37,438 nucleotides of DNA, from contig CAWGHH010000005.1 in the NCBI GenBank assembly GCA_963822405.1, positions 1 through 37,438 of the forward strand. Direction: 5' to 3'. The translations under genes were made by a program, and so were the position numbers. The notes below the pieces were generated by a model that saw only the letters and a list, made by a program, of their open reading frames with translations, had not been told where the DNA came from and searched no databases. Origin of the DNA: Candidatus Uhrbacteria bacterium. GTDB lineage: Bacteria > Patescibacteriota > Patescibacteriia > UBA9934. Below are positions 2,597 to 28,237 of the stretch, in pieces; the first letter of the stretch is position 1; the number at the start of each line of letters is the position of its first letter.

Positions 2597-3166
2597 CTAT
2601 AGTTCGTTCACTATCACCTTCGCCGGTCTCAGTATTACGTCGCCAAACTTCCAGCCTTTAATTAGTTCTTCGAGCACTTCACCGTCGGGCTTCGACGAAT
2701 CATTCTTCGACCCGCCAGCTTCATGAAGTTTTGGATCAAATGGTTTGCCGACGGATTCGATGGCTTCGACGCCGAGACCTTTAAGAGCCTCGGTGAATTG
2801 TCGATCGATATGCTGAATGCCGGTGAACCAAGTGGCGAATTTTTTCTTGAACTCGTCGGAACACTCGGTCGTATCGGGCACGTGTTTTGTGACGTAGCCG
2901 AAGTTGTCGATCACTGGCAGAAGGTCGTCAGCCACGCCCATGCGAACTCGACGACGATCTTCTTCGCGGGTTTGTGTATTCATCTTTTGGAGATTCTCGT
3001 AGTCGGCCAAGGCACGTTTCCAACCGGAGAGATATTCTGTGCACTTCGTTTCGAGGTCTGAGGGTGTAGCGTGTAGGGTGTTGGGTGTAGAACCCTGACC
3101 GACTACGCCCTCCTCTACGACACCCGACTCCCTACTCCCTACACCCTGTTTGTCTTGTTCACTCAT
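2597..3166 (-). CDS. grpE: nucleotide exchange factor GrpE
   Basis: 189 aa with a GrpE-like core ([18 protein letters not shown]..., C-terminal [10 protein letters not shown]). Its ATG overlaps the hrcA stop (ATGA). Confidence 0.93.
3061..3146. repeat. imperfect 28-nt inverted repeat inside grpE codons ~7-35
   Basis: The left arm 3061-3088 (AGGGTGTAGCGTGTAGGGTGTTGGGTGT) matches the reverse complement of 3119-3146 at 24 of 28 positions by hand alignment. The coding strand also carries GGG-N4-GGG-N4-GGG-N4-GGG at 3123-3146. Confidence 0.7.
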
Positions 3167-3930: not shown

Positions 3931-4578
3931 CTAAGCTGCTTTTAACCTCTTCTGAACTAGTCGTTGTTCCCTAGACAGAGGAACAAGCTTTCCCGGAACT
4001 ATTTCACCGCCTACAACTTGAGCCAACCTCTGACCCTCATCGTCTGGTTCTCCCTGTAGAGGATTGCTTTCCTCGATTTCATCGGCTGAAGGTAACTTCG
4101 AGCCCATTATCAATGCATCATTGGCGGCATCCATACGCGCTATAAATTCTTTACCTGCGCTTCCCGCAAGTGGAAGCGACGAATCTCGATCTTCTGCTTC
4201 ACTTTCCATAATAGCCACACGAAGCTGGCTAAGGTTTTCTACATCTCGTGCCGCACGTTCCTTGCGCATAGCAATCGTCGCATAAGATTCTCCCTTTGGT
4301 TCTTGAAGTTCAGAAACGCGAGCTCCCTGAACCTCTGCATGTTGACCCTCCATAGCTTCAGTCGTCAGCGCAATTTGTCCACGAAGTTTGATCGCTTCCG
4401 AATCATCCTTCAGGCCCGCCGTCTCAAGTCGTTTGAGTTCAGCATTAAGCTCAGCCAACTCCTCCTGTAAATTCAAAAGTTCAGACCGTCGCTCAGGCGT
4501 CATAACTACACGCGGCTCGCGTTTTGCTTTAAATTCCCTTGCGCTCTGTGGTACTTCTCTGCGTAAATCAAGGTTCAT
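3931..4578 (-). CDS. hypothetical acidic coiled-coil protein (215 aa)
   Basis: The ORF starts 3 nt after the upstream stop. It is rich in E, L, A and R in heptad-like stretches (ELAELNAELKRLE). Confidence 0.7.
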   Translation of the reverse strand: MNLDLRREVPQSAREFKAKREPRVVMTPERRSELLNLQEELAELNAELKRLETAGLKDDSEAIKLRGQIALTTEAMEGQHAEVQGARVSELQEPKGESYATIAMRKERAARDVENLSQLRVAIMESEAEDRDSSLPLAGSAGKEFIARMDAANDALIMGSKLPSADEIEESNPLQGEPDDEGQRLAQVVGGEIVPGKLVPLSREQRLVQKRLKAA

Positions 4579-6959: not shown

Positions 6960-7844
6960 CTACGTAAACAACTCCGCCTCAAACCCCGCCGATTTTTCGA
7001 CTGAATAATCCGCAAACAAAATCAAATATTCAAACTGATACTCGCGTCGTAAAACGTTGCCGTCGGCGAACATGAGTGCAGTAGTCATAGCGTCGGTGAG
7101 CATAGTTGTGTCGGCGACAGTCCAGACGGCGATGATATGTCGAGGGCTTTCGAGTTTGAACGGGTCGATGACGTGATGGAACCGTCCCCAGGCTCGACGA
7201 TTGCCGGCGGAACCGCAAATACTTTTATTGCCGAGCATACAAATACCGATTGCCTCATCAAGATTTTCGGGATGTTCGAGCGCAACACTAATCGCCTCCG
7301 TCCCTCGATGCCTTATGTCTCCCCCGGCGTCAACGATGTAAGACAAGAATCCTTCGCGTTCGATCAACTCACTCACGATGTCGATCAAGTAACCCTTCCC
7401 GGCTGCCCCGAAGTCGAGTGAGACGCCTTCTTGAAATACTTCCAGCGTATTCGTTGCCGGATCAAACTTCATCGCCTCGTCCCATGTTGGCGGGGTCGAC
7501 AAAGTGCCCTCGGCCAAAGAATAATGCGCGTCATAACCAGCCTCAGTCATGACTTGTCCAATAAGCGGAGTGACTCGACCATCTGTCGACCGATACACTT
7601 GCTCATACAACGCAAAAAGAGGCGCAGCGTCCGGTGGAAACGCGTACACGCCTTTTGCTTTTGCCACTTTAGAAACTAATGAGTCAGCTCGAAAACGGGA
7701 ATATGTTTTGTCGAACTCTTTTATTCGCGCGTCGATTAACGGCTTAAGGCGAGCCTCGACCAGTTCACCCTGAACCCCCTTTAATCCCCCTGGAAGGGGG
7801 AATTCAATTGTCCAATGAGTTCCGATGGCGTCGAAAACGAGCAC
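6960..7844 (-). CDS. apbE: FAD:protein FMN transferase (ApbE family)
   Basis: 294 aa with ApbE-like motifs: FGAAGKGYLID, DAGGDI and SAGNRRAWGRFHHVIDP. Confidence 0.88.
   Translation of the reverse strand: MLVFDAIGTHWTIEFPLPGGLKGVQGELVEARLKPLIDARIKEFDKTYSRFRADSLVSKVAKAKGVYAFPPDAAPLFALYEQVYRSTDGRVTPLIGQVMTEAGYDAHYSLAEGTLSTPPTWDEAMKFDPATNTLEVFQEGVSLDFGAAGKGYLIDIVSELIEREGFLSYIVDAGGDIRHRGTEAISVALEHPENLDEAIGICMLGNKSICGSAGNRRAWGRFHHVIDPFKLESPRHIIAVWTVADTTMLTDAMTTALMFADGNVLRREYQFEYLILFADYSVEKSAGFEAELFT
7764..7805. repeat. degenerate copy of the G/C-rich palindromic in-frame element (in apbE)
   Basis: TTCACCCTGAACCCCCTTTAATCCCCC-TGGAA-GGGGGA. The 5' part aligns with TCCACCCTGCCCTCCCCCCCTACCCCC of the ligA copy. 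It encodes PLPGGLKGVQGE. Confidence 0.5.
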
Positions 7845-7847
7845 AAT

Positions 7848-8387
7848 TTATGCCTTTGCCTGTGACTGGATTTTGGACAAGGCAGCGTTCAAACCAATAG
7901 TTGTCAAAGAAGAACCGGAAACACGCATTGGGTTAATGTCAGAAAGTTTCTTGCCGGTGACGAACGGACCGAATGCGTCAACGATTAAATTTTGATACTG
8001 CTGGGAAGTTCCGTTTCTTGCTTGATTCTGAATTGACGCGCCTGTGACAACATCATCTTTAACAGTAACAGTAACGCCAATTGTTTCTGGTTCCCCTTCA
8101 GTAAAATAGTTTCCAGAAGCCGAATAGGTTCCATTCTTATAAGAAAAAGTTGTCACCGGAGTTGGTGTTGGAACTGGTGTAGGAACAGGAGTTGGAGTCG
8201 GAGTTGGCGTTGGGACAGGTGTAGGCGCTGGAACTGGTGTCGGAGTTGGGGTCGGCGTGTTTATGGCGGTCGGGGTCGACGAAACTGACGGTGCGGTCTG
8301 CGCACATCCGGCGCCAATAACCACTAACGAAGCCATGACAACAGCACCAAGAGTAGCCAAATATTTATCAAAAGATGATCGAGCCAT
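7848..8387 (-). CDS. lipoprotein with Thr/Pro linker and FMN-binding domain (probable ApbE substrate)
   Basis: Signal peptide ending in a Cys (VVIGAGC), then a (TP)n linker at aa ~41-78, then an FMN_bind-like domain (YKNGTYSASG...VTVTVKDDVVTG). An SGSS-LT flavinylation-type motif sits at nt 7908-7919. Confidence 0.8.
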   Translation of the reverse strand: MARSSFDKYLATLGAVVMASLVVIGAGCAQTAPSVSSTPTAINTPTPTPTPVPAPTPVPTPTPTPTPVPTPVPTPTPVTTFSYKNGTYSASGNYFTEGEPETIGVTVTVKDDVVTGASIQNQARNGTSQQYQNLIVDAFGPFVTGKKLSDINPMRVSGSSLTTIGLNAALSKIQSQAKA

Positions 8388-9284: not shown

Positions 9285-9498
9285 AGAAAATATATCGATT
9301 TCTCAATATCCGCAGAATACTGAGTAATATATATATATACAAACGTGTCTGTGGACTAACGGTAGTATTTACAAAATCTTCAATAACGTGCTATTCTCTA
9401 ATCAACAAGAGCCCGCAACAAATCCCAGTGGGAAAGTCCACACGGACTAGCGGTCACTCTGGCCTCGCGCAAGCGGGGCGTTTTAATTACATACAAAA

Positions 9499-13259: not shown

Positions 13260-15257
13260 TTAATTCCGCCCAACCATACGCAAAAAATCTGATTCCGACA
13301 ATATCTGTACCCCGAGCTCTCTTGCCTTCTCGGCTTTGCTACCGGGATTTTCGCCAACTACAACGTAATCTGTTTTTTTACTGACGGATTCTGAAACGCC
13401 GCCGCCGAGCATGCGGACGGTATCTTTGGCTTCTTCCCGGCCGAGCTTTTCGAGGGTGCCGGTGATGACAAATGTTTTGCCGTCGAGCACGCGCTTAATT
13501 GCTTTGGCCTGTGAAACCGTGACGCCGACCTGCCTATATGCCTCGAGCATGTCTTTACCGCGTTGGCTCTGGAAGAATTCGAGAATTGACTCGGCTACTA
13601 CATCGCCAATGTCTGGAACATTTTCAAGTTCGGCTTTCGTGGTCGCCGCGAGTTTGTCGATAGATCCGAAACTTGTCGCAAGTGAGAATGCCGTCTCTTC
13701 GCCGACATGACGAATTCCAAGCGCGACGATGAACTTATTAAAATCAATTTCTTTCTTGGACTGAATTTGGTCGAATAGTTTCTTGCTCGACAGCTCGGCG
13801 AAACCTTCGACGTTCAATAAATCATCCGGCGACAAACGGAAAATATCCGGTGCGGTTTTAATTAGACCGGCCGTTAGTAATTTCTCGATAATCTTCCAAC
13901 CTAATCCGTCGATCTCAAATGCTTTCGCTGCGTGAACAAGATTCTCTTCTTCCATGGCAAAGCAACTTTTATTCGTGCAGTAGTACGCCACTTCGCCCTC
14001 TCGTCGCTCGATTGGCGATCCGCACACCGGACACTTCTCTGGAATCTCAATGATCTGTTCTTTGCCAGTTCTCATCTCCGTCAAAACTTTTACAATTTTT
14101 GGAATAATATCGCCGGCCTTCGTCAAAATAACCGTATCGCCAACTCTTACGCCAAGTCGCTCAATCTCGTCGGCGTTGTGAAGTGTCGCGTGCGTGACAG
14201 TCGTACCCGCAATGAACGTAGCGCGTACAGTAGCGACAGGTGTGAGCGAGCCAGTTCGGCCAACAAACCAATCGACAGACTCGACAGTAGTAGTTGCTTC
14301 TTCTGGTGGAAACTTGAAAGCGATAATTCCCCGCGGCGTTTTCCCAACTACACCGAGTTTCTGAAACACGTCGAGGTCATTCACTCGGACTACTACACCG
14401 TCAATCCAATAATCAAGTTTCTCACGCTGTTTCTGCATTTTCTTATAGAAGTTCTCGACGTCAGCGACAGTACGAGTCAGCTCTCCTGGCGAAGTCTTGA
14501 AACCAAGAGCATGTAGCTTTTCGACGGCTTGAGTTTGCGTTCGAGTTTGACCGTCGAGAACCTGCCACGCGAAGAAGTTCAACGGCCTGCTCGCCGTCAC
14601 CCGTGGATCTAATTGTCGAATACTGCCAGCGCTGACGTTACGCGGATTTGCAAAAGTTTCTTCGCCACGGGCAGCGCGTTCGGCGTTCATCTTTTCAAAG
14701 GCTTTACGAGGCATGTAGATTTCACCGCGGATATCCACCCTGCCCTCCCCCCCTACCCCCTCCACTGCGTGGAGGGGGAGGAGCAATGGAATTGCTTCTA
14801 TAGTCCTGATATTCAAAGTTACATCCTCACCGATTTTGCCGTCGCCTCGAGTCGCCGCCGTCATGAGTTGGCCATCGACGTAAACTAGGGACACTGCCAG
14901 ACCGTCGATTTTTAGCATTGAGTACATCTCCTGCGGTTTTCCTTCTTCAAGCTTAGTAATTCGTTTCGCCCACTCCTCAAACTCGGCAATAGTAAAAACA
15001 TCTTCCATGGACAACATGGGAGTGACGTGTTCGATTTTCGAGAACTTGTCGAGCGCAGTTCCAGCTACTCGCTGAGTTGGCGAGTCGGCGGTGATCAAGT
15101 CAGGGAACTGATCTTCTAGTAGTTTGAGCTCGTGCTTGAGTGCATCAAGAGCAGCCTCGGGAATTGAGAGCCGATCGAGGACGTGATATTCGTAACGATA
15201 TTTATTGATTGCCTCCCGGAGCTTCAAAATACGCTCGCTGGCCTCTTGCTTTGACAT
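13260..15257 (-). CDS. ligA: NAD-dependent DNA ligase LigA
   Basis: KIDG adenylation motif (LKIDGLAVS), TRGDG, a 4-Cys zinc finger (CPVCGSP...YCTNKSC), HhH and BRCT regions. Start set at ATG 15257 (MSKQEASERILKLRE). The track's 39-codon N-terminal extension does not look ligase-like. Confidence 0.96.
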   Translation of the reverse strand: MSKQEASERILKLREAINKYRYEYHVLDRLSIPEAALDALKHELKLLEDQFPDLITADSPTQRVAGTALDKFSKIEHVTPMLSMEDVFTIAEFEEWAKRITKLEEGKPQEMYSMLKIDGLAVSLVYVDGQLMTAATRGDGKIGEDVTLNIRTIEAIPLLLPLHAVEGVGGEGRVDIRGEIYMPRKAFEKMNAERAARGEETFANPRNVSAGSIRQLDPRVTASRPLNFFAWQVLDGQTRTQTQAVEKLHALGFKTSPGELTRTVADVENFYKKMQKQREKLDYWIDGVVVRVNDLDVFQKLGVVGKTPRGIIAFKFPPEEATTTVESVDWFVGRTGSLTPVATVRATFIAGTTVTHATLHNADEIERLGVRVGDTVILTKAGDIIPKIVKVLTEMRTGKEQIIEIPEKCPVCGSPIERREGEVAYYCTNKSCFAMEEENLVHAAKAFEIDGLGWKIIEKLLTAGLIKTAPDIFRLSPDDLLNVEGFAELSSKKLFDQIQSKKEIDFNKFIVALGIRHVGEETAFSLATSFGSIDKLAATTKAELENVPDIGDVVAESILEFFQSQRGKDMLEAYRQVGVTVSQAKAIKRVLDGKTFVITGTLEKLGREEAKDTVRMLGGGVSESVSKKTDYVVVGENPGSKAEKARELGVQILSESDFLRMVGRN
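14734..14784. repeat. G/C-rich palindromic element inserted in frame in ligA
   Basis: TCCACCCTGCCCTCCCCCCCTA-CCCCCTCCAC-TGC-GTGGAGGGGG-AGGAGC. The perfect 10-bp stems are 14756-14765 and 14769-14778. A near-identical copy lies at 27219-27272. Confidence 0.85.
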
Positions 15258-17514: not shown

Positions 17515-17888
17515 ACGGCTAATAATTTTGTGAAAAATTTGATCATGTCTTGAGGCGACAAACTCCCCCATAGCATAACGCCATCAGCTCCAGCCTTATA
17601 TGCTTCATCAACATATTCACGAGACGGACTCTTCAGGAGGAAGACGATCTTAGCCGTATGCAACGTAGGCAATGACCTAAAATGTTTCAATAATTTCTTG
17701 ATTGGCTCGCCGGCTTCTAATTGCTCGACCACGAACACCTTCGGCCTAAAACGAACTGCCTTGCGCTCGCCCTCCTCAACGTCTTCCGCTCCCTCAACTT
17801 TCCAATTTTCTTTTTCAAACCGAGCCGTAAGAATTGTTCTCAGTTTATGATCCTTCATGACAAACATGACGGAAGGTTTAGCGTTCAT
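17511..17888 (-). CDS. CheY-like receiver-fold protein, probably a pseudo-receiver
   Basis: The alternating beta/alpha pattern resembles REC. The expected phospho-acceptor Asp aligns to Glu (KVFVVEQ) and the conserved Lys is not evident. The start is either 17888 (1 nt after the pilM stop) or 17906. Confidence 0.5.
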   Translation of the reverse strand: MNAKPSVMFVMKDHKLRTILTARFEKENWKVEGAEDVEEGERKAVRFRPKVFVVEQLEAGEPIKKLLKHFRSLPTLHTAKIVFLLKSPSREYVDEAYKAGADGVMLWGSLSPQDMIKFFTKLLAV

Positions 17889-19516: not shown

Positions 19517-21212
19517 TTACGCCTTAATATCAATTATACGATACTGCACCTCCTTTCTCCCATTCCACTCATTCTCCCCCGCTTCATAGACCACATCGAT
19601 CATATCGCCAATCTTCAAAGTGGTCAGGAGATGACCCATAGAAAAACCAACTAACTTAAACTGCGCCCCTGTTTGGTCAAGGACATTCAGCCGGACATGC
19701 GCGCCAGTTGCTCCCATTGGCATCACCTCGCGAACTTTAAGTTTTGTCGCCGCGAACATTGGCGGACGGTTCCCCTCACCAAACGGCTGACAAGCGTTCA
19801 GTGAATTAATAAGGTCGAGCGTTACTTCGACGAGCGGAACCTCAGCATCAATCAATAATTTGTCGATTGGCCCAGCTTCCCCAAAGTGAATATGCGCGAA
19901 GTCATTCATCTTCTCGCGAAAAATAGACAGGTTTTCCATTGACGGCAAAGTCAAACCACACGCCTGCGGGTGTCCGCCTTTTTTCACAAAAATATCACCG
20001 CAAGAATTCATCGCTTCGACTAGATGCAAGCCACCAAGTGATCGTCCAGAACCAACAAAATGCTCGCCAACATTTGTAAACGCAAACGCTGGCTTCCCAA
20101 ACTCGCTCACTAGCCGGCCAGCTACAAGACCGACAATTCCGGGGAGCCACGCATCAGAATGCACAACGAGTACGGGCAAGGCGCCGCCTTGCCCCTTCAC
20201 CTGCTCTTTAGCAATCTTGTACATGTCAGCAAACAGCCCCTGCCGTTCTTTATTCAGTTCTTCGAGTCTCACAACTGGCCCCATAGCTTCCTCAAAAGTC
20301 TCCGCAGACAACGCATCAAACGCAATTTTTGCACTCGCAATTCTCCCCGCCGCGTTTAGTCTAGCGACCTATCCTATAACCAACCGCCTGCGTATCAATG
20401 TCGCCCGCTTCAACACCCGCCGACGCAATAATCGCCTTGAGCCCAGGACGCCGCGTCTTCTGTAAAACTTTAAGGCCGAAAAATTCGAGCGCACGATTCT
20501 CACCCAAGAGTGGCATCACGTCAGTCACCGTCGCAACAGCCACAAGGTCAAGCATCCACTTCTCGTACCCCACCGGAATATCCGCGCCATGATTCCGTGC
20601 CTCAGCAACCAAACCACACGCGAATTTATACGCTACACCTGTTCCGCAAAGTGTCTTATTCGGGTACGTCTCCCCCGGTGCCAATGGATGCAAAATTATC
20701 GAGTGGTCAGGAAAGTGCGTTCCCATCTGGTGGTGATCACAAACTATCGAGTCGACACCCAGCTCATGCGCCCGCCCAAGCTCAAGTCCGTTCGCAATTC
20801 CGCAATCAACCGTAATCAGTAGTCGAATTCCGTCACGCGCGAACTGTTCAACATTGTGCATCGCGACACCGTAGCCATCCTTCTCACGGTCAGGCAGAAA
20901 GGCCTCGACGAGAAACTCGATCTCAAGTGCCTTACAGATATCCCGAATGGCACAATACAAAACCGTTGTCCCGGAAACGCCGTCCGCATCATAGTCACCA
21001 TGAATCACGATCTTCTCCTCATTAGCCAGCGCGTCAAATAATCGAGCTACCGCTTCCGGCATCTTTGTAAATTTATCAAACGAAAAAGTGTCGCGCTCAA
21101 AATTTGGTGCCAAAAAATTAGCCACGTTCTCCGTCGCTACTCCTCTATTCGCGAGTATCTGATGCAGCAAGGACTCCTCCGTCCTCGGCCTAATATCCCA
21201 AAGTTTTTTCAT
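19517..21212 (-). pseudogene. recJ: single-stranded-DNA exonuclease RecJ, interrupted by a 1-nt frameshift near 20366
   Basis: The N-terminal ORF (20361..21212) has the DHH domain (IHGDYDADGVSG, VDCG, CDHHQ) and ends ...AVGYRIGR-stop. The +1 frame continues ARLNAAGRIASAK into the DHHA1 ORF (GGHPQACG). Confidence 0.75.
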
Positions 21213-21213
21213 G

Positions 21214-21312
21214 TTAGAACCCCAGCGCCACCATAGACACAATCATCGAAACCAAAATCAACCCCGCAATCACTGCCCAAAACCTTTTAATTGTTTTTTC
21301 CGTGATTTTCAT
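21214..21312 (-). CDS. possible 32-aa single-pass membrane peptide
   Basis: MKITEKTIKRFWAVIAGLILVSMIVSMVALGF. Its TAA lies 1 nt from the recJ ATG. Support comes only from hydrophobicity and packing. Confidence 0.3.
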   Translation of the reverse strand: MKITEKTIKRFWAVIAGLILVSMIVSMVALGF

Positions 21313-24572: not shown

Positions 24573-24613
24573 AATTGGCCGATAGCTTACCGAATTACCG
24601 GCTCCTTGTCCAA

Positions 24614-24642
24614 GAAATTATTTGGCCTGAAATTATTTGGCC
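24614..24642. repeat. tandem direct repeat GAAATTATTTGGCC x2
   Basis: Identical 14-mers at 24614-24627 and 24629-24642, in the lepA/pyrF divergent spacer. Confidence 0.8.
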
Positions 24643-24749
24643 CCGAATTCACGCTTGTGTTTTTTTGACCCATCAAGTAATCTACCGACGGATTTCGACT
24701 CGATAGCCGAGCCGTGAACATCCGTTCTCAATTTCAAAGGAAGGGTAAA

Positions 24750-25580
24750 ATGAGCAATCGAAATTTTCGAGCACTTCTGGAAAACCAGTGGGATCGCGAA
24801 AACTTCGCCTGCGTTGGACTCGACAGCGAGTTCGGCAAGATTCCTGAGTCCGCACGCTGGGACGGCGTTGCTAGCACAATTGTGCAATTCAACCGGACTA
24901 TCGTCGAGGCGACAAATGACCTCGTCTGCGCATACAAGCCGAACGCGGCGTTCTATGAAGCACACGGTAGCGAAGGCATGATTGCGCTCCAGCGCACGAT
25001 CGCGGACATCCACGCCATCGCGCCGGACGTGCTGGTGATCCTGGATGCCAAGCGAGCGGACATCGGTAATACGAACGCCGGGTACGTGAATGCAGCCTTC
25101 GACTTCCTGCAAGCGGACGCCATCACCGTGCATCCGTACCTCGGAGCCGAAGCACTCCAACCGTTCCTCGCGCGAGCCGACAAGGGCGTCATTGTCCTCT
25201 GCCGCACGTCCAACCCCGGCGCGGGCGAGTTCCAGGATCTGCGCGTGGACGGCGAACCGCTCTACAAGATCGTCGCCCGCAAGGTGGCGACCGAGTGGAA
25301 CAAGAACGGAAACTGCGCGCTCGTCGTTGGCGCTACGTGCCCCGAGGAACTCGGTGAAGTCCGCGAGATCGTCGGCGACATGCCAATCCTCATCCCTGGC
25401 ATCGGCGCCCAAGGTGGCGATGTCGAGAAGGCCGTCACCGCTGGCAAAACCAAGAGTGGCAAGGGCATGATCATCAACTCGTCCCGTGGCATCATCTTCG
25501 CCTCCAAAGGCGCGGACTACGCCGAAGCCGCTCGTCGGGAGACGATCAAGCTCCGCGACCTCATCAACCAGTACCGATAG
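24750..25580 (+). CDS. pyrF: orotidine 5'-phosphate decarboxylase (long, type-2-like)
   Basis: VGLD, DAKRADIGNT and PGIGAQGG motifs. Start set at ATG 24750, after the purine-rich GGAAGGG. The gene is very GC-rich compared with its neighbours. Confidence 0.88.
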   Translation: MSNRNFRALLENQWDRENFACVGLDSEFGKIPESARWDGVASTIVQFNRTIVEATNDLVCAYKPNAAFYEAHGSEGMIALQRTIADIHAIAPDVLVILDAKRADIGNTNAGYVNAAFDFLQADAITVHPYLGAEALQPFLARADKGVIVLCRTSNPGAGEFQDLRVDGEPLYKIVARKVATEWNKNGNCALVVGATCPEELGEVREIVGDMPILIPGIGAQGGDVEKAVTAGKTKSGKGMIINSSRGIIFASKGADYAEAARRETIKLRDLINQYR

Positions 25581-25601
25581 GTAGAACCAAACTCGACCTA
25601 T

Positions 25602-25647
25602 CACCGATACCTCCCGTACGCCCAGCGCTGCGGGAGGGTTTTTATTT
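25602..25647 (+). terminator. terminator hairpin, copy 1 of a 45-nt direct repeat
   Basis: CACCGATACCTCCCGTACGCCCAGCGCTGCGGGAGGGTTTTTATTT has stem CCTCCCG/CGGGAGG followed by a T run. Confidence 0.75.
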
Positions 25648-25660
25648 GACGAAAAAGTAA

Positions 25661-26128
25661 ATGGCGACTAGTATTTCCCCTTCCGTGAACCGAAACGGAA
25701 CAGGAGACACCGTGCCCGAAATCATTAACGAACTTGCCATGGTGCTGGATAGGCTCTTTAATGAGCGCGCCACCGAAAATGCACCGCTCGATTCCATTCG
25801 TTCGCAAGCAATGTTCGTAGACATATCAGCTCCACAAATGAGCAGACTACGGACCGGCAAAGCGCCACTGACGAGGCGGATGGTGCGGAAGTTTTCTCAA
25901 AAACTCGGTCGCACGAGCGAAGAGAAAGACAACATCTACCAACGACTCATAGGGCTGAGCAACCATACAATCCAAGAAGTTCCGACGCATCAAGAATTAA
26001 ATGACAAGATCAAGTACCATACTGACGCCATCAAGGAACACCAAAAGCAATTGAAGGATCTGCACTGGGCTGAACAAAATTACGAGGTCTGGGCAAAGGG
26101 CTTCGAGATTCTCAGGAGACTCAAGTGA
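25661..26128 (+). CDS. XRE-like helix-turn-helix protein
   Basis: An HTH-like segment (FVDISAPQMSRLRTGKAPLTRRMVRKFSQKLG) and a coiled-coil C terminus. The start is uncertain: a TTGACG-N17-TAGTAT promoter-like pair (25646-25674) would favour ATG 25739 over 25661. Confidence 0.6.
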   Translation: MATSISPSVNRNGTGDTVPEIINELAMVLDRLFNERATENAPLDSIRSQAMFVDISAPQMSRLRTGKAPLTRRMVRKFSQKLGRTSEEKDNIYQRLIGLSNHTIQEVPTHQELNDKIKYHTDAIKEHQKQLKDLHWAEQNYEVWAKGFEILRRLK

Positions 26129-26150
26129 CATCACGTAATTCACACACGAC

Positions 26151-26196
26151 CACCGTCACCTCCCGTACGCCTAGCGCTGCGGGAGGGTTTTGTTTA
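26151..26196 (+). terminator. terminator hairpin, copy 2 of the 45-nt direct repeat
   Basis: CACCGTCACCTCCCGTACGCCTAGCGCTGCGGGAGGGTTTTGTTTA differs from copy 1 at only a few positions. Confidence 0.75.
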
Positions 26197-27118
26197 TGCA
26201 ACTTTTCGAACATCTCTAAACGAACGCCACACAAAATATGCGATTATCAAAGTAGTGATAGTTGGGCTCACCCATTCTGGAACGTCAACGCCGAATGCCT
26301 GGGCGAGCATGACGATCCCAAGCGCGAGGACAGAATACATGGCACCATTTTTCAAAAGTGCATATTTCTTGATTCGGTCGATGTTCGACACGGTGATCCA
26401 ACGAACGACTATTGCGCCGAGTCCGTTGCCAAGGAGAATAAGTGGAACAGCGAGAGTAAAAGCAAAAGCTCCGAGTACGCCATCAATTGAAAACGTCATG
26501 TCGATAATTTCCAGATACAAAATTTTGCTCAAATCGGACATGCCATTATTACCGTGAACGAGCTGTTGCTCAGCCGACTCCGCGTTCTGCTTGAAACCGT
26601 GGGTGATGAAGAAAGCCGTTCGAGCCGACTACTGCACCAAACGCGAGCATGGGACTTTCTTTCATGGCGAACCAAACGATCGTCGTCAACAAGATCGAAA
26701 CGACGGCGTAGAACCAAACACCTTGTCGCAAAACAAATTTCTCACCGGGAAGACCGAATGTTTTCGGTTCGAGGAAAAGCCAGTGGAGAAAAAGGAACAA
26801 CAGGAACACTCCACCACCCATAAGCAAAATTGGCGAGGACGATTCGATCGCCGCTAAGACACTCGGATCATTGCTGAACGTCGCAGTTAGCGAACCAAGC
26901 AGACCTAGTGATGGCGTCGCCGCCCAAACGATGAGCCACGGTAGGGTTCCTCGAACAATAAAGACCGCAAATAAGATTCCCCAAAACAAAAACCATTTCT
27001 TAGCCTTTGCACTCATGCCACTCAACACCTCGGCGTTAATAATGGCGTTGTCGATGCTTGAAATAACCTCGAACAGAGCTAAACCGATAACGGTGAATAA
27101 GACAGAGAAAGTGAACAT
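26194..27118 (-). pseudogene. DUF475/TerC-like integral membrane protein, interrupted by a 1-nt frameshift near 26620
   Basis: The N-terminal ORF has EVISSIDNAI and ends ...GAVVGSNGFLHH... In the +1 frame the text reads TAFFITHGFKQNAESAEQQLVHGNNG and runs straight into MSDLSKILYLEIIDMTFSIDGVLGAFA of the second ORF. Confidence 0.7.
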
Positions 27119-27121
27119 AGA

Positions 27122-28237
27122 TTACGCAATGATACCCGATCCAAGCAATTCCTCGCCATCATAAAAGGCGACGAATTGACCGGGAGCGACGGCGCGCTGG
27201 GGAGCGTCGAAGGTCACCTCCACCCTCCTTGCCCTCCCCCCGACCCCCTCCACTTCGTGGAGGGGGAGGAGCGCGCATCCTGATACAGGCTGGCGGTAGC
27301 GAACGCGAGCCTGAATCTTTTTGCCGTAATAGTTTTTGAGATTGCCGGGGATGGTTTCAGAGATGTCGGTTGCGGTCAGTTCGGTGCGATACAAGGCAGG
27401 ATCCTCGTCGCCAACGGCAACAATGACCTCATTCGTTTCTGGTCGGCGTTCGACGACATACAAAGGAGTGCCGCCGCCGATTCCCAACCCTTCGCGTTGG
27501 CCGATAGTATAAAATTCAAAACCCTGATGCTGACCGATAATTTTACCGTCGGTCGTAACAATATTACCGGTGTGTGGCGTAATACGCTCGGCAAGGAAGT
27601 CCTTCATCGTCACTTGTCCGATAAAACAAATCCCCTGACTGTCTTTTTTATTGGCCACCGACAAACCAGCCTTCTCGGCAATCTTTCGGACCTCTGGTTT
27701 TTCGAGATGGCCGATTGGGAACAATGATCGAGCGATTTGCTCCTGTGTCAGCTGGCACAAAAAATAACTTTGGTCTTTATTCGCATCGACGCCAGCGAGC
27801 AAATGAGCAACGCCTTTCTCATCGACAATCTTCCGCGCATAATGTCCGGTTGCAATAAAATCACAGCCAAGTTTATCGGCCTCGCGCATAAACAAATCAA
27901 ACTTCATGTACTTGTTACAAAGTACGTCCGGGTTTGGCGTTCGGCCAGCTTTGTACTCGGTGATCATGTACTCGTAAACCAATTTACGGTACTCGTCCTC
28001 AAAATCGAATGTGAGGAACTCGATGCCCAACTGGGAGGCGACGCGCATCGCATCTCTTCGCTCATCTCGCCAATCGCATTCCTCGGTCCCCGCCCCCGCC
28101 GACCAATTCTTCATGAATCCCCCAATAACCTCATATCCCTGTTCCAATAGCAAAACGGCCGACACGGAACTGTCGACACCACCGCTCATGCCAAGTAATA
28201 CCTTGCCTTTGGCCATAGAATTTGCCATTTGTATCAT
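27122..28237 (-). CDS. mnmA: tRNA 2-thiouridine(34) synthase MnmA
   Basis: PP-loop GMSGGVDSS, plus TGHYAR and RYRQ motifs. Alternative in-frame ATGs lie at 28228 and 28216. Confidence 0.95.
   Translation of the reverse strand: MIQMANSMAKGKVLLGMSGGVDSSVSAVLLLEQGYEVIGGFMKNWSAGAGTEECDWRDERRDAMRVASQLGIEFLTFDFEDEYRKLVYEYMITEYKAGRTPNPDVLCNKYMKFDLFMREADKLGCDFIATGHYARKIVDEKGVAHLLAGVDANKDQSYFLCQLTQEQIARSLFPIGHLEKPEVRKIAEKAGLSVANKKDSQGICFIGQVTMKDFLAERITPHTGNIVTTDGKIIGQHQGFEFYTIGQREGLGIGGGTPLYVVERRPETNEVIVAVGDEDPALYRTELTATDISETIPGNLKNYYGKKIQARVRYRQPVSGCALLPLHEVEGVGGRARRVEVTFDAPQRAVAPGQFVAFYDGEELLGSGIIA
27219..27272. repeat. G/C-rich palindromic element inserted in frame in mnmA
   Basis: TCCACCCTCCTTGCCCTCCCCCCGA-CCCCCTCCAC-TTC-GTGGAGGGGG-AGGAGC. 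The 10-bp stems are 27244-27253 and 27257-27266. It is near-identical to 14734-14784. Confidence 0.85.

Follow-up and report, generated by a model that had tools for sequence, protein, structure and literature searches.

The stretch of DNA analyzed here, referred to below as the window, comprises 37,438 nucleotides of contig CAWGHH010000005.1 (assembly GCA_963822405.1) from a Candidatus Uhrbacteria bacterium. Two of its genes, mnmA and ligA, each contain a copy of one and the same short G/C-rich palindromic repeat, in frame and on the coding strand of the host gene (Table 1). The open reading frame (ORF) in the first case was identified as MnmA by Pfam (PF03054, PF20259, and PF20258) and also by PDB structures (2HMA, E 3e-106; 2DER, E 4e-100). 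The whole element is located there as TCCACCCTCCTTGCCCTCCCCCCGACCCCCTCCACTTCGTGGAGGGGGAGGAGC when read on the plus strand, and in the protein it appears as the peptide ALLPLHEVEGVGGRARRVEV, flanked by RYRQPVSGC and TFDAPQRA.

A global pairwise alignment of the two copies gave 48 identical bases out of 50 aligned; the two substitutions lie in the hairpin loop and in the linker, and the copies further differ by indels of 4 nt and 1 nt. By contrast, the 40-nt flanks matched at 10 of 40 and 9 of 40 positions, which is the random level, and therefore the ends of the element are sharp and the duplication well bounded. The 19-nt core shared by both copies had no chance match in 100 dinucleotide shuffles. 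The 5' part is read in the same frame in both, LLPLH[E/A]VEGVGG, whereas between the two indels the frame differs (RARR and EGR in the mnmA and ligA copies, respectively); since the indels differ by 3 nt in total, the frame is restored after this stretch. All six reading frames of the mnmA copy are free of stops, and five of the six of the ligA copy. The first-pass annotation, made from the letters alone, had described near-identical copies differing by these indels and a few substitutions, loop included, and had placed the peptide between the RYRQ...C motif and a C-terminal strand, as we have also found. The loop about 8 residues shorter that it gave for E. coli MnmA comes close to the 9 residues by which the window segment exceeds that of S. 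pneumoniae. It had also named an assembly artefact as something that could undo its claim. A chimeric repeat collapsed into two genes during assembly or binning might be suspected in an uncultured-type genome whose MnmA protein has no exact counterpart among other assemblies. However, the 54-nt element is shorter than a read, the copies differ by the substitutions and indels given above, both ORFs are open and alignable on either side, and sister elements occur, at this loop and at others, in relatives whose genomes were assembled independently, so that we give this explanation almost no credence.

Table 1. Repeat copies, their component parts and their host genes in the window.
Feature	Position	Strand	Remarks
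Host gene mnmA (tRNA 2-thiouridine synthase)	27122-28237	minus	Intact ORF, 371 amino acids
Whole repeat copy in mnmA	27219-27272	minus	54 nt; encodes (A)LLPLHEVEGVGGRARRVE; MnmA residues ~322-340
5' extension GCTCCT	27267-27272	minus	Common to both window copies; complementary to part of the tail
Pyrimidine arm CCCCCTCCAC	27257-27266	minus	Watson-Crick pairing with 27244-27253
Hairpin loop, 3 nt, GAA on the coding strand	27254-27256	minus	ligA copy has GCA (substitution)
Purine arm GTGGAGGGGG	27244-27253	minus	
2-nt linker TC and purine tail GGGGGGAGGG	27232-27243	minus	Tail mirrors the purine arm core GGAGGGGG; candidate third strand
3' extension CAAGGAGGGTGGA	27219-27231	minus	Common to the ligA copy except for the 4-nt indel; specific to this subfamily
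Host gene ligA (NAD-dependent DNA ligase)	13260-15257	minus	Pfam match
Sister copy in ligA	14734-14784	minus	51 nt; encodes LLPLHAVEGVGGEGRV; adenylation domain, just before the VDIRGE motif
Small member of the same architecture in the ApbE gene (6960-7844, minus)	7774-7801	minus	TCCCCCT-TCC-AGGGGGA-TTAAA-GGGGG; in frame, residues ~14-23

The insert and its absence from orthologs

The closest genomes are those of uncultured Patescibacteria (the candidate phyla radiation, CPR), with best matches at 82–84% amino acid identity for MnmA and 86–89% for LigA, and the gene order from SecDF to LigA is kept in three of the related loci (L221, L222, and L223). At the orthologous site, LigA of L190 (89%), L191 (86%), and L221 has 5 residues where the window has 13: PL-LLPLK-GRIEIRGE, PL-SINAA-GRIEIRGE, and PL-SIETT-GRVEVRGE, against PL-LLPLHAVEGVGGE-GRVDIRGE. 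The net gain relative to these three close orthologs is thus only 8 codons, though the repeat measures 51 nt, and therefore resident ligA codons were replaced; the element-derived G-R-V-D is now part of a conserved LigA strand. The loop concerned precedes the conserved (V/L)(D/E)(I/V)RGE strand of the adenylation domain, and E. coli LigA has HGENIPAR there.

In MnmA the segment from RYRQ to QRA is 37 residues long in the window, 28 in Pseudomonas and 24 in L221 (84% identity), where it forms a minimal hairpin, CVFDGSAVTF; across 120 Patescibacteria homologs it spans 24–60 residues, and none of the 120 contains PLHxVEG. Among the nearest relatives the loop is either minimal (L221), of unrelated sequence (L110 and P0002) or occupied by another variant of the same kind of element (L220 and L222, the latter keeping a shortened version, SLPGGLEGV). 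Because the peptide is missing from all 120 homologs and the loop of L221 is minimal, the insert in MnmA is taken to be secondary and lineage-specific. The same absence, together with the three LigA orthologs that have no insert, upholds the earlier argument that the resemblance is one of duplicated DNA and not of convergent protein evolution. In L110, the locus with the closest MnmA ortholog, the RYRQ loop (~3960-4005) has no palindrome and consists of four tandem units of ~10 nt (ACCCTYTNTN) encoding TITLSNPFSPSITLL; this insertion into the same loop is DNA-driven as well but of another type.

For the window MnmA, AlphaFold2 (AF2) gave, from an alignment of 61 sequences, a model (mean predicted local distance difference test, pLDDT, 86.4; predicted template modeling score 0.87) that places residues 319–331 and 334–348 in two long antiparallel strands with GG at the turn (pLDDT 76–86). 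In this prediction the insert makes a β-hairpin already present in the C-terminal barrel longer. Such an ordered extension, instead of a disordered loop, is what would be expected of an adaptive feature, e.g., a β-hairpin in contact with a partner or with tRNA, in which case the resemblance of the mnmA and ligA DNA would be secondary, and the preservation of the resident GRVE motif of LigA as an element-encoded GRVD points the same way. However, the same 50 nt recur in two unrelated enzymes with identity at positions irrelevant to coding and with an internal compensated frameshift, and the loop, besides lacking the peptide in every homolog, is hypervariable in both length and sequence. An adaptive origin is therefore very improbable. 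The effect on the protein is most likely neutral or mildly deleterious.

Hairpin, mirror tail and spread within the clade

On the coding strand the mnmA copy is composed of GCTCCT, CCCCCTCCAC, GAA, GTGGAGGGGG, TC, GGGGGGAGGG, and CAAGGAGGGTGGA. Its stem is a perfect 10-bp hairpin, CCCCCTCC(AC)/(GT)GGAGGGGG, closed by a 3-nt loop. Folding of 61-nt segments as single-stranded DNA with ViennaRNA, whose computations here covered the Watson-Crick hairpin and G-quadruplex alternatives, gave -13 to -17 kcal/mol (z = -2.1 to -3.5). The arm core GGAGGGGG and the tail GGGGGAGG, which in mnmA follows after the 2-nt linker, are mirror images. With the tail GGGGG(G)AGG set antiparallel to the arm after a linker of 2–4 nt, 8 of 8 triads (G.G-C or A.A-T) are possible in both window copies, which makes them candidates for a class II (purine-motif) intrastrand triplex with an effective loop of 3–4 nt; the complementary strand carries the pyrimidine mirror, CCTCCCCCC-NN-CCCCCTCC. 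Of the features that mark a class II triplex motif (TM), the complementary pyrimidine and purine blocks (6–15 nt) around a short loop, the mirror third block 1–6 nt downstream and the over-representation of multiple, dispersed copies are found here. We have also considered the tail as an outer stem: its pairing with GCTCCT gives an extended bulged hairpin in the window copies, but the 5' flanks of other members are not complementary, and the idea was rejected. At the element, neither the window nor seven loci of other phyla yielded a match to an Rfam family at its gathering score.

We scanned the window and 14 loci of the same clade for C-rich/G-rich hairpins, ignoring the flanks, and then looked for a mirror or direct copy of the purine core within 24 nt. 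A perfect mirror copy was found in 13 of the 14 informative hairpins and a perfect direct copy in two; one of the latter belongs to the mirror-tailed set and the other has the direct copy only. The position of the single A co-varies between arm and tail: the arm GGAGGGGG goes with the tail GGGGGAGG (both window copies, L115, L116:4012, L221:10136, L117:2953, and L117:4011) and the arm GGGGGAG with the tail GAGGGGG (L220, L117:7041, L117:893, L116:2877, and L117:2901). A formal motif scanner (at least 7 triads, at most 1 mismatch in the third block) detected 17 motifs in 165 kb of clade DNA, a clear enrichment over the 0.00 per locus obtained in 30 first-order-Markov shuffles of each. These 165 kb are biased toward the neighborhood of mnmA, through which the loci were fetched. 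The copy number is patchy, from none in L222 and L223 (18–21 kb) to six in 7 kb of L117.

In the window the scanner hit exactly three places, 27233-27266 (MnmA), 14744-14778 (LigA), and the ApbE site of Table 1, all with the purine version on the minus, i.e., coding, strand. These purine strands all lie on the G-rich strand of the window, the one that GC skew marks as the presumed template of lagging-strand synthesis. The ApbE member represents a second and smaller triplex-type family, GAACCCCCTTTA(A)TCCCCCTGGAAGGGGGAA, which is in frame in the window and has a near-identical copy in an intergenic spacer of L221 beside pilM (17826-17852).

At least 13 of the 17 motifs lie inside recognizable genes, with the sampling bias already mentioned. 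MnmA holds eight of them (one each in the window, L110, L115, L116, L220, and L221, and two in L117), LepA two (L117 and L112), and LigA, ApbE, and RluA (L116) one each; outside these 13 are the called intergenic spacer of L221 and three motifs in L117. Four loops have been struck repeatedly: MnmA RYRQ...QRA, MnmA KNW...CxW, LepA GDTIT...GYREVRP, and RluA ...KYG.... The RYRQ loop contains the window type, a CTCCCCCTT type (L220), a CCCCTCCTT type (L116), and in L117 an element in the opposite orientation; the purine strand is the sense strand in the first three and reversed in the last, and the hairpin sequences differ. At the KNW loop, 8 residues long in 77 of 118 homologs and up to 29 in others, one palindrome is read in two frames, as SPLLTKEGVGGG in L115 and as TPPPYQGGGRGE in L221, and the peptides present among homologs comprise these two, SPSFKEGGKGES, and PPYEGGVGGG. 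The LepA loop has received two independent inserts, each with hairpin and tail (L117, 7041-7072; L112, 5545-5580), and the RluA-type pseudouridine synthase carries inserts at 2855-2875 of L110 and 2866-2897 of L116, the former with a direct-repeat instead of a mirror tail and hence not counted among the 17. The window's own LepA and RluA have no insert at these loops. Turnover at these sites is fast, and the pattern over the clade fits repeated insertion or conversion, rapid erosion (as in the SLPGGLEGV of L222) and a filter of selection that lets pass only insertions that are in frame and in permissive loops; a function at the protein level is not in keeping with it.

Another possibility is that the elements act as nucleic acid within the gene, a G-quadruplex (G4), an mRNA hairpin or an internal Shine-Dalgarno-like GGAGG pausing transcription or translation, for example to time domain folding. 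Both window copies contain a canonical G3+N1-7 x4 motif, to which the 3' extension contributes the third and fourth G-tracts, and an RNA model in which G4 folding is allowed retains the hairpin while a G4 forms in the tail. The RNA hairpin itself is strong (-34 kcal/mol for a 69-nt mnmA segment), and in most genic copies the purine strand is the sense strand. However, only 4 of the 17 members have the G4 motif, and hence the G-quadruplex neither defines nor maintains the repeat family. Both orientations and different frames occur in the same loop, one member is intergenic (the L221 spacer), close relatives live without the insert and the host genes are unrelated in function. The equivalent PIT elements of E. 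coli had no promoter, terminator, or polymerase effects in vivo, according to the work cited in PMC4666352. Pausing is accordingly quite an unlikely role. The first-pass annotation had read the extra G tracts as a potential G4, which holds for both window copies as a motif but not for the family as a whole: the tracts are a mirror repeat of the purine arm, and on sequence grounds they would be the third strand of an intrastrand triplex motif that went unrecognized at that time. As purine-motif triplexes do not form in RNA (PMC4666352), any triplex role lies at the DNA level.

Probable origin and mobility of the repeat

We have also scanned one genome per species for CCCCCTCCACNNNGTGGAGGGGG, which gave at least 109 loci among the matches listed. 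Many of these matches are ordinary terminator-like hairpins of GC-rich genomes, but 75 of 113 copies of the identical hairpin have a G4+AGG (GGGG+AGG) tail on one side only, and a small number of lineages account for these, with many copies in each genome (Polyangiaceae, Myxococcales, SAR324, Rhizomicrobium, Phycisphaerae, and Anaerolineae); a copy is also present in one Saccharibacteria contig. In the Polyangiaceae and Myxococcales copies a 2-nt linker is followed by GGGGGGAGGAATCCAC; in those of Rhizomicrobium, SAR324, and Phycisphaerae, arm and tail are separated by another hairpin, which is variable. If the tail made a tertiary contact with the hairpin, one would expect just this, a connector free to vary and a mirror tail that is conserved. 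The tail was also considered as a Shine-Dalgarno site and dropped, as only a minority of Polyangiaceae copies have a long ORF within 80 nt downstream and the spacing is not fixed. Near-identical elements with hairpin and mirror tail are present in Myxococcota, SAR324, Alphaproteobacteria, Planctomycetota, Chloroflexota, and Patescibacteria. The more specific pattern of hairpin plus AGGAG(C) recovered only SAR324 copies among genome contigs, and with AGGAGC a single soil contig (L219) among metagenome contigs, with a Polyangia-type copy. In this contig the copy (1-44) adjoins a group II intron-type reverse transcriptase gene (185-1537).

Carriage by phages is unsupported: the window hairpin is absent from the viral contigs of IMG/VR and blast against phages returned only chance matches of 25 nt. 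Other types of triplex motif do occur in IMG/VR, in GC-rich contigs that are not from Patescibacteria. In contigs labelled viral among these (L230-L239, GC 0.55–0.70) we observed triplex-type inverted pairs ~70 nt apart, TCTCCCCCTT...GAGGGGG with TCCTCCCCCT...GGTGGGGG, which resemble the type A/type B pairs of the E. coli repeat BoxC. The window element itself had no blastn match (E <= 10) in 5,426 E. coli genomes.

Taken as a whole, we consider it likely that the 54-nt segment is one copy of a dispersed repeat that is short, non-coding and G/C-rich, a piece of selfish or structural DNA tolerated in permissive protein loops. The repeat would have been copied into mnmA, and separately into ligA, after divergence from the closest sequenced relatives. 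As single-stranded DNA it would form a hairpin whose purine arm binds the tail via G.G-C and A.A-T triads, and such structures may arise transiently on DNA exposed during replication, repair or transcription and may stall or break the fork. The elements could then be duplicated, exchanged, and deleted by recombination, template switching, repair of stalled forks or breaks, or gene conversion, rather than by a transposase encoded nearby. Protein loops may be the sole “intergenic-like” space of so dense a genome, and hypervariable loops would be a by-product of selfish or structural DNA.

A rival reading is an element of the type of REP (repetitive extragenic palindromic) sequences or miniature inverted-repeat transposable elements, mobilized in trans by a REP-associated tyrosine transposase (RAYT) or an IS200/IS605-like Y1 transposase, the mirror tail being recognized by a protein or acting as a guide and not as a triplex strand. 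In its favor, the palindrome is short, G/C-rich and found dispersed in many copies, intragenic REPs are documented, including one in a DNA ligase gene (PMC3733652), and the window purine strands lie on the presumed lagging-strand template, where Y1 transposases would act. On the other hand, the tags GTAG and CGTC are missing from the ends of the element, Pfam showed neither a transposase nor a Y1_Tnp domain in the 37-kb window, the gene lists of L221-L223 (~60 kb) had none either, and the BoxC/TM repeats of E. coli have the same architecture without a transposase. We therefore regard mobilization in trans as unlikely. Of the mobility claimed by the first-pass annotation, only the copy-and-paste character and the presence or absence between genomes are shown.

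Several points weigh against the idea of a dispersed structural repeat. Neither a donor site nor a target-site duplication was identified; a T in front of the element and a TC behind it are weakly favored. In ligA the codons GGC-AGG-GTG-GAT (GRVD) of the element stand in for the resident GRVE/GRIE codons, so that it was not a simple insertion. Part of the mirror symmetry of the G-runs around GGAGG could reflect low sequence complexity. The version specific to the window, searched as the hairpin plus AGGAG(C) pattern, was not found in other Patescibacteria records among genome and metagenome contigs. The sequence bears no similarity to E. coli BoxC. In E. coli the TMs occur strictly between genes; in Patescibacteria most members are single copies within genes and in frame. 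Finally, dimethyl sulfate footprinting of the E. coli TM in the cell was negative, and its duplex form gave no triplex signal (PMC4666352).

A broader proposal, which we put forward tentatively and hold to be somewhat doubtful, is that triplex-forming repeats are in general a self-propagating structured DNA that, in gene-dense Patescibacteria lacking intergenic space, has moved into coding sequence, where repeated breakage and repair of the same sites, brought about by hairpins or triplexes on single strands, have made a few surface loops of essential enzymes (MnmA, LigA, LepA, RluA, and ApbE) into indel hot spots, with insertions, swaps by gene conversion and erosion. If so, it would be a generator of protein loop diversity driven by DNA structure and would offer an in vivo read-out of triplex-induced instability, so far lacking. 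Were the occurrence of triplex-type elements in essential genes, at recurring loops, to hold genome-wide, the consequences of non-B DNA could be read from protein alignments in a natural system, part of the unusual insertions in Patescibacteria proteins would be explained, and annotators and structure predictors would be warned that loop insertions of this kind are driven by DNA and are not functional features of the protein.

Other observations in the window concern different sequences. The grpE gene (2597-3166, minus) contains an in-frame palindromic element distinct from that of mnmA and ligA, an imperfect palindrome of 87 nt (3061-3147) with arms AGGGTGTAGCGTGTAGGGTGTTGGGTGT and ACACCCGACTCCCTACTCCCTACACCCT that are 86% complementary; as RNA it folds at ~-45 kcal/mol, and the part of the GrpE N-terminal region that it encodes precedes, for the most part, residue 29, where the Pfam match begins. 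An intergenic DUF3800-II RNA motif of Rfam is located at 9402-9464 on the plus strand (56.8 bits, gathering score 43.2). The recJ gene is split near 20311-20361 (minus) into ORFs 20361-21242 and 19517-20311 (DHH; DHHA1 and OB) by an in-frame stop (...LVIG*VARLNAAG...), whereas relatives have RecJ as a single gene of 563–583 amino acids; it could be a pseudogene, a sequencing error or a case of recoding. Between lepA and terC (24573-26570) there are ~2 kb of ORFs without a Pfam match, and the TerC/DUF475 gene is short, 182 amino acids versus 318 in L221 and 311 at the P0006 locus. Two terminator-like hairpins of 41 nt, 93% identical (CCTCCCG...CGGGAGGGTTTT), follow plus-strand ORFs in this region (25602-25642 and 26151-26191); L223 has two small genes on the opposite strand at the same position. 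Lastly, an ORF with no Pfam match (7848-8387, minus) contains a degenerate GTTGGN tandem repeat at 8149-8258 with periods of 12 and 18, encoding a low-complexity tract.

Comparison with known repeats

G/C-rich repeats with intrastrand triplex motifs were described by Holder et al. (2015), who also cite Hoyne et al. (2000), as abundant in many bacteria (PMC4666352). Their representative in E. coli, known as BoxC, PIT, or TMECO, has 23 copies in K-12, is always intergenic, often in inverted pairs, and has no associated transposase; its isolated strand forms a stable triplex in vitro by circular dichroism and nuclear magnetic resonance, it marks loci unusually rearranged between strains, and its copy number differs drastically between close relatives (PMC4666352). 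The blocks follow the same order in our elements, i.e., pyrimidine arm, short loop, purine arm, short loop and second purine block, with the pyrimidine-motif version on the opposite strand. Both are G/C-rich, multi-copy and dispersed at variable loci in uneven numbers, and no transposase was seen with our elements in the window or in the syntenic relatives. At the level of sequence, the BoxC/TMECO pattern CCCTCNCCC-N3-6-GGGNGAGGG-N3-GGGNGAGGG is not matched, as the window arms are C5TCC and not CCCTCNCCC; besides, the host genome is small, with ~49% GC, and the window subfamily has extra 5' and 3' extensions. Judged by architecture, the element belongs to a bacterial repeat class that is described but poorly understood.

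The Rickettsia palindromic elements (Ogata et al., 2000) are 100–150 bp long and A/T-rich, as summarized in PMC3733652. Going by that summary, they share with our elements the presence of palindromic repeats in frame in working genes, essential housekeeping genes included, in reduced genomes and in surface-exposed parts of the proteins. The window element differs from them in being 51–54 nt long and G/C-rich, in its homopurine mirror repeat and in belonging to another phylum, with no sequence similarity. REPs are also G/C-rich palindromes, of 20–40 bp and tagged with GTAG/CGTC, that are occasionally found in ORFs, notably of replication and repair genes, DNA ligase among them (Di Nocera et al., 2013; PMC3733652). 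The window element is likewise a short G/C-rich palindrome within ORFs; however, neither of its copies has such a tag at the ends, and a mirror purine tail is not a feature of REPs.

A further parallel can be drawn with the uptake sequences of Pasteurellaceae (USS) and Neisseria (DUS), which are 9–12 nt long, have a fixed core and occur about once per kb. These too are short dispersed motifs, which gather where proteins are permissive and poorly conserved and in frames that are tolerated, but they do not have the architecture of hairpin plus mirror, and nothing in the present analysis connects our element with DNA uptake. Within the literature searched there was no paper on in-frame triplex-type repeats, or on such a family in Patescibacteria, and a search by element sequence strings returned only unrelated eukaryotic primers and motifs, so that the in-frame, loop-targeted lifestyle appears not to have been described before. 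Intergenic triplex repeats linked to instability and in-frame palindromic repeats in Rickettsia proteins had been known separately; in this lineage of the candidate phyla radiation, most members with the triplex-type architecture sit in essential genes and recur at the same loops in many relatives, in either orientation and in several frames.

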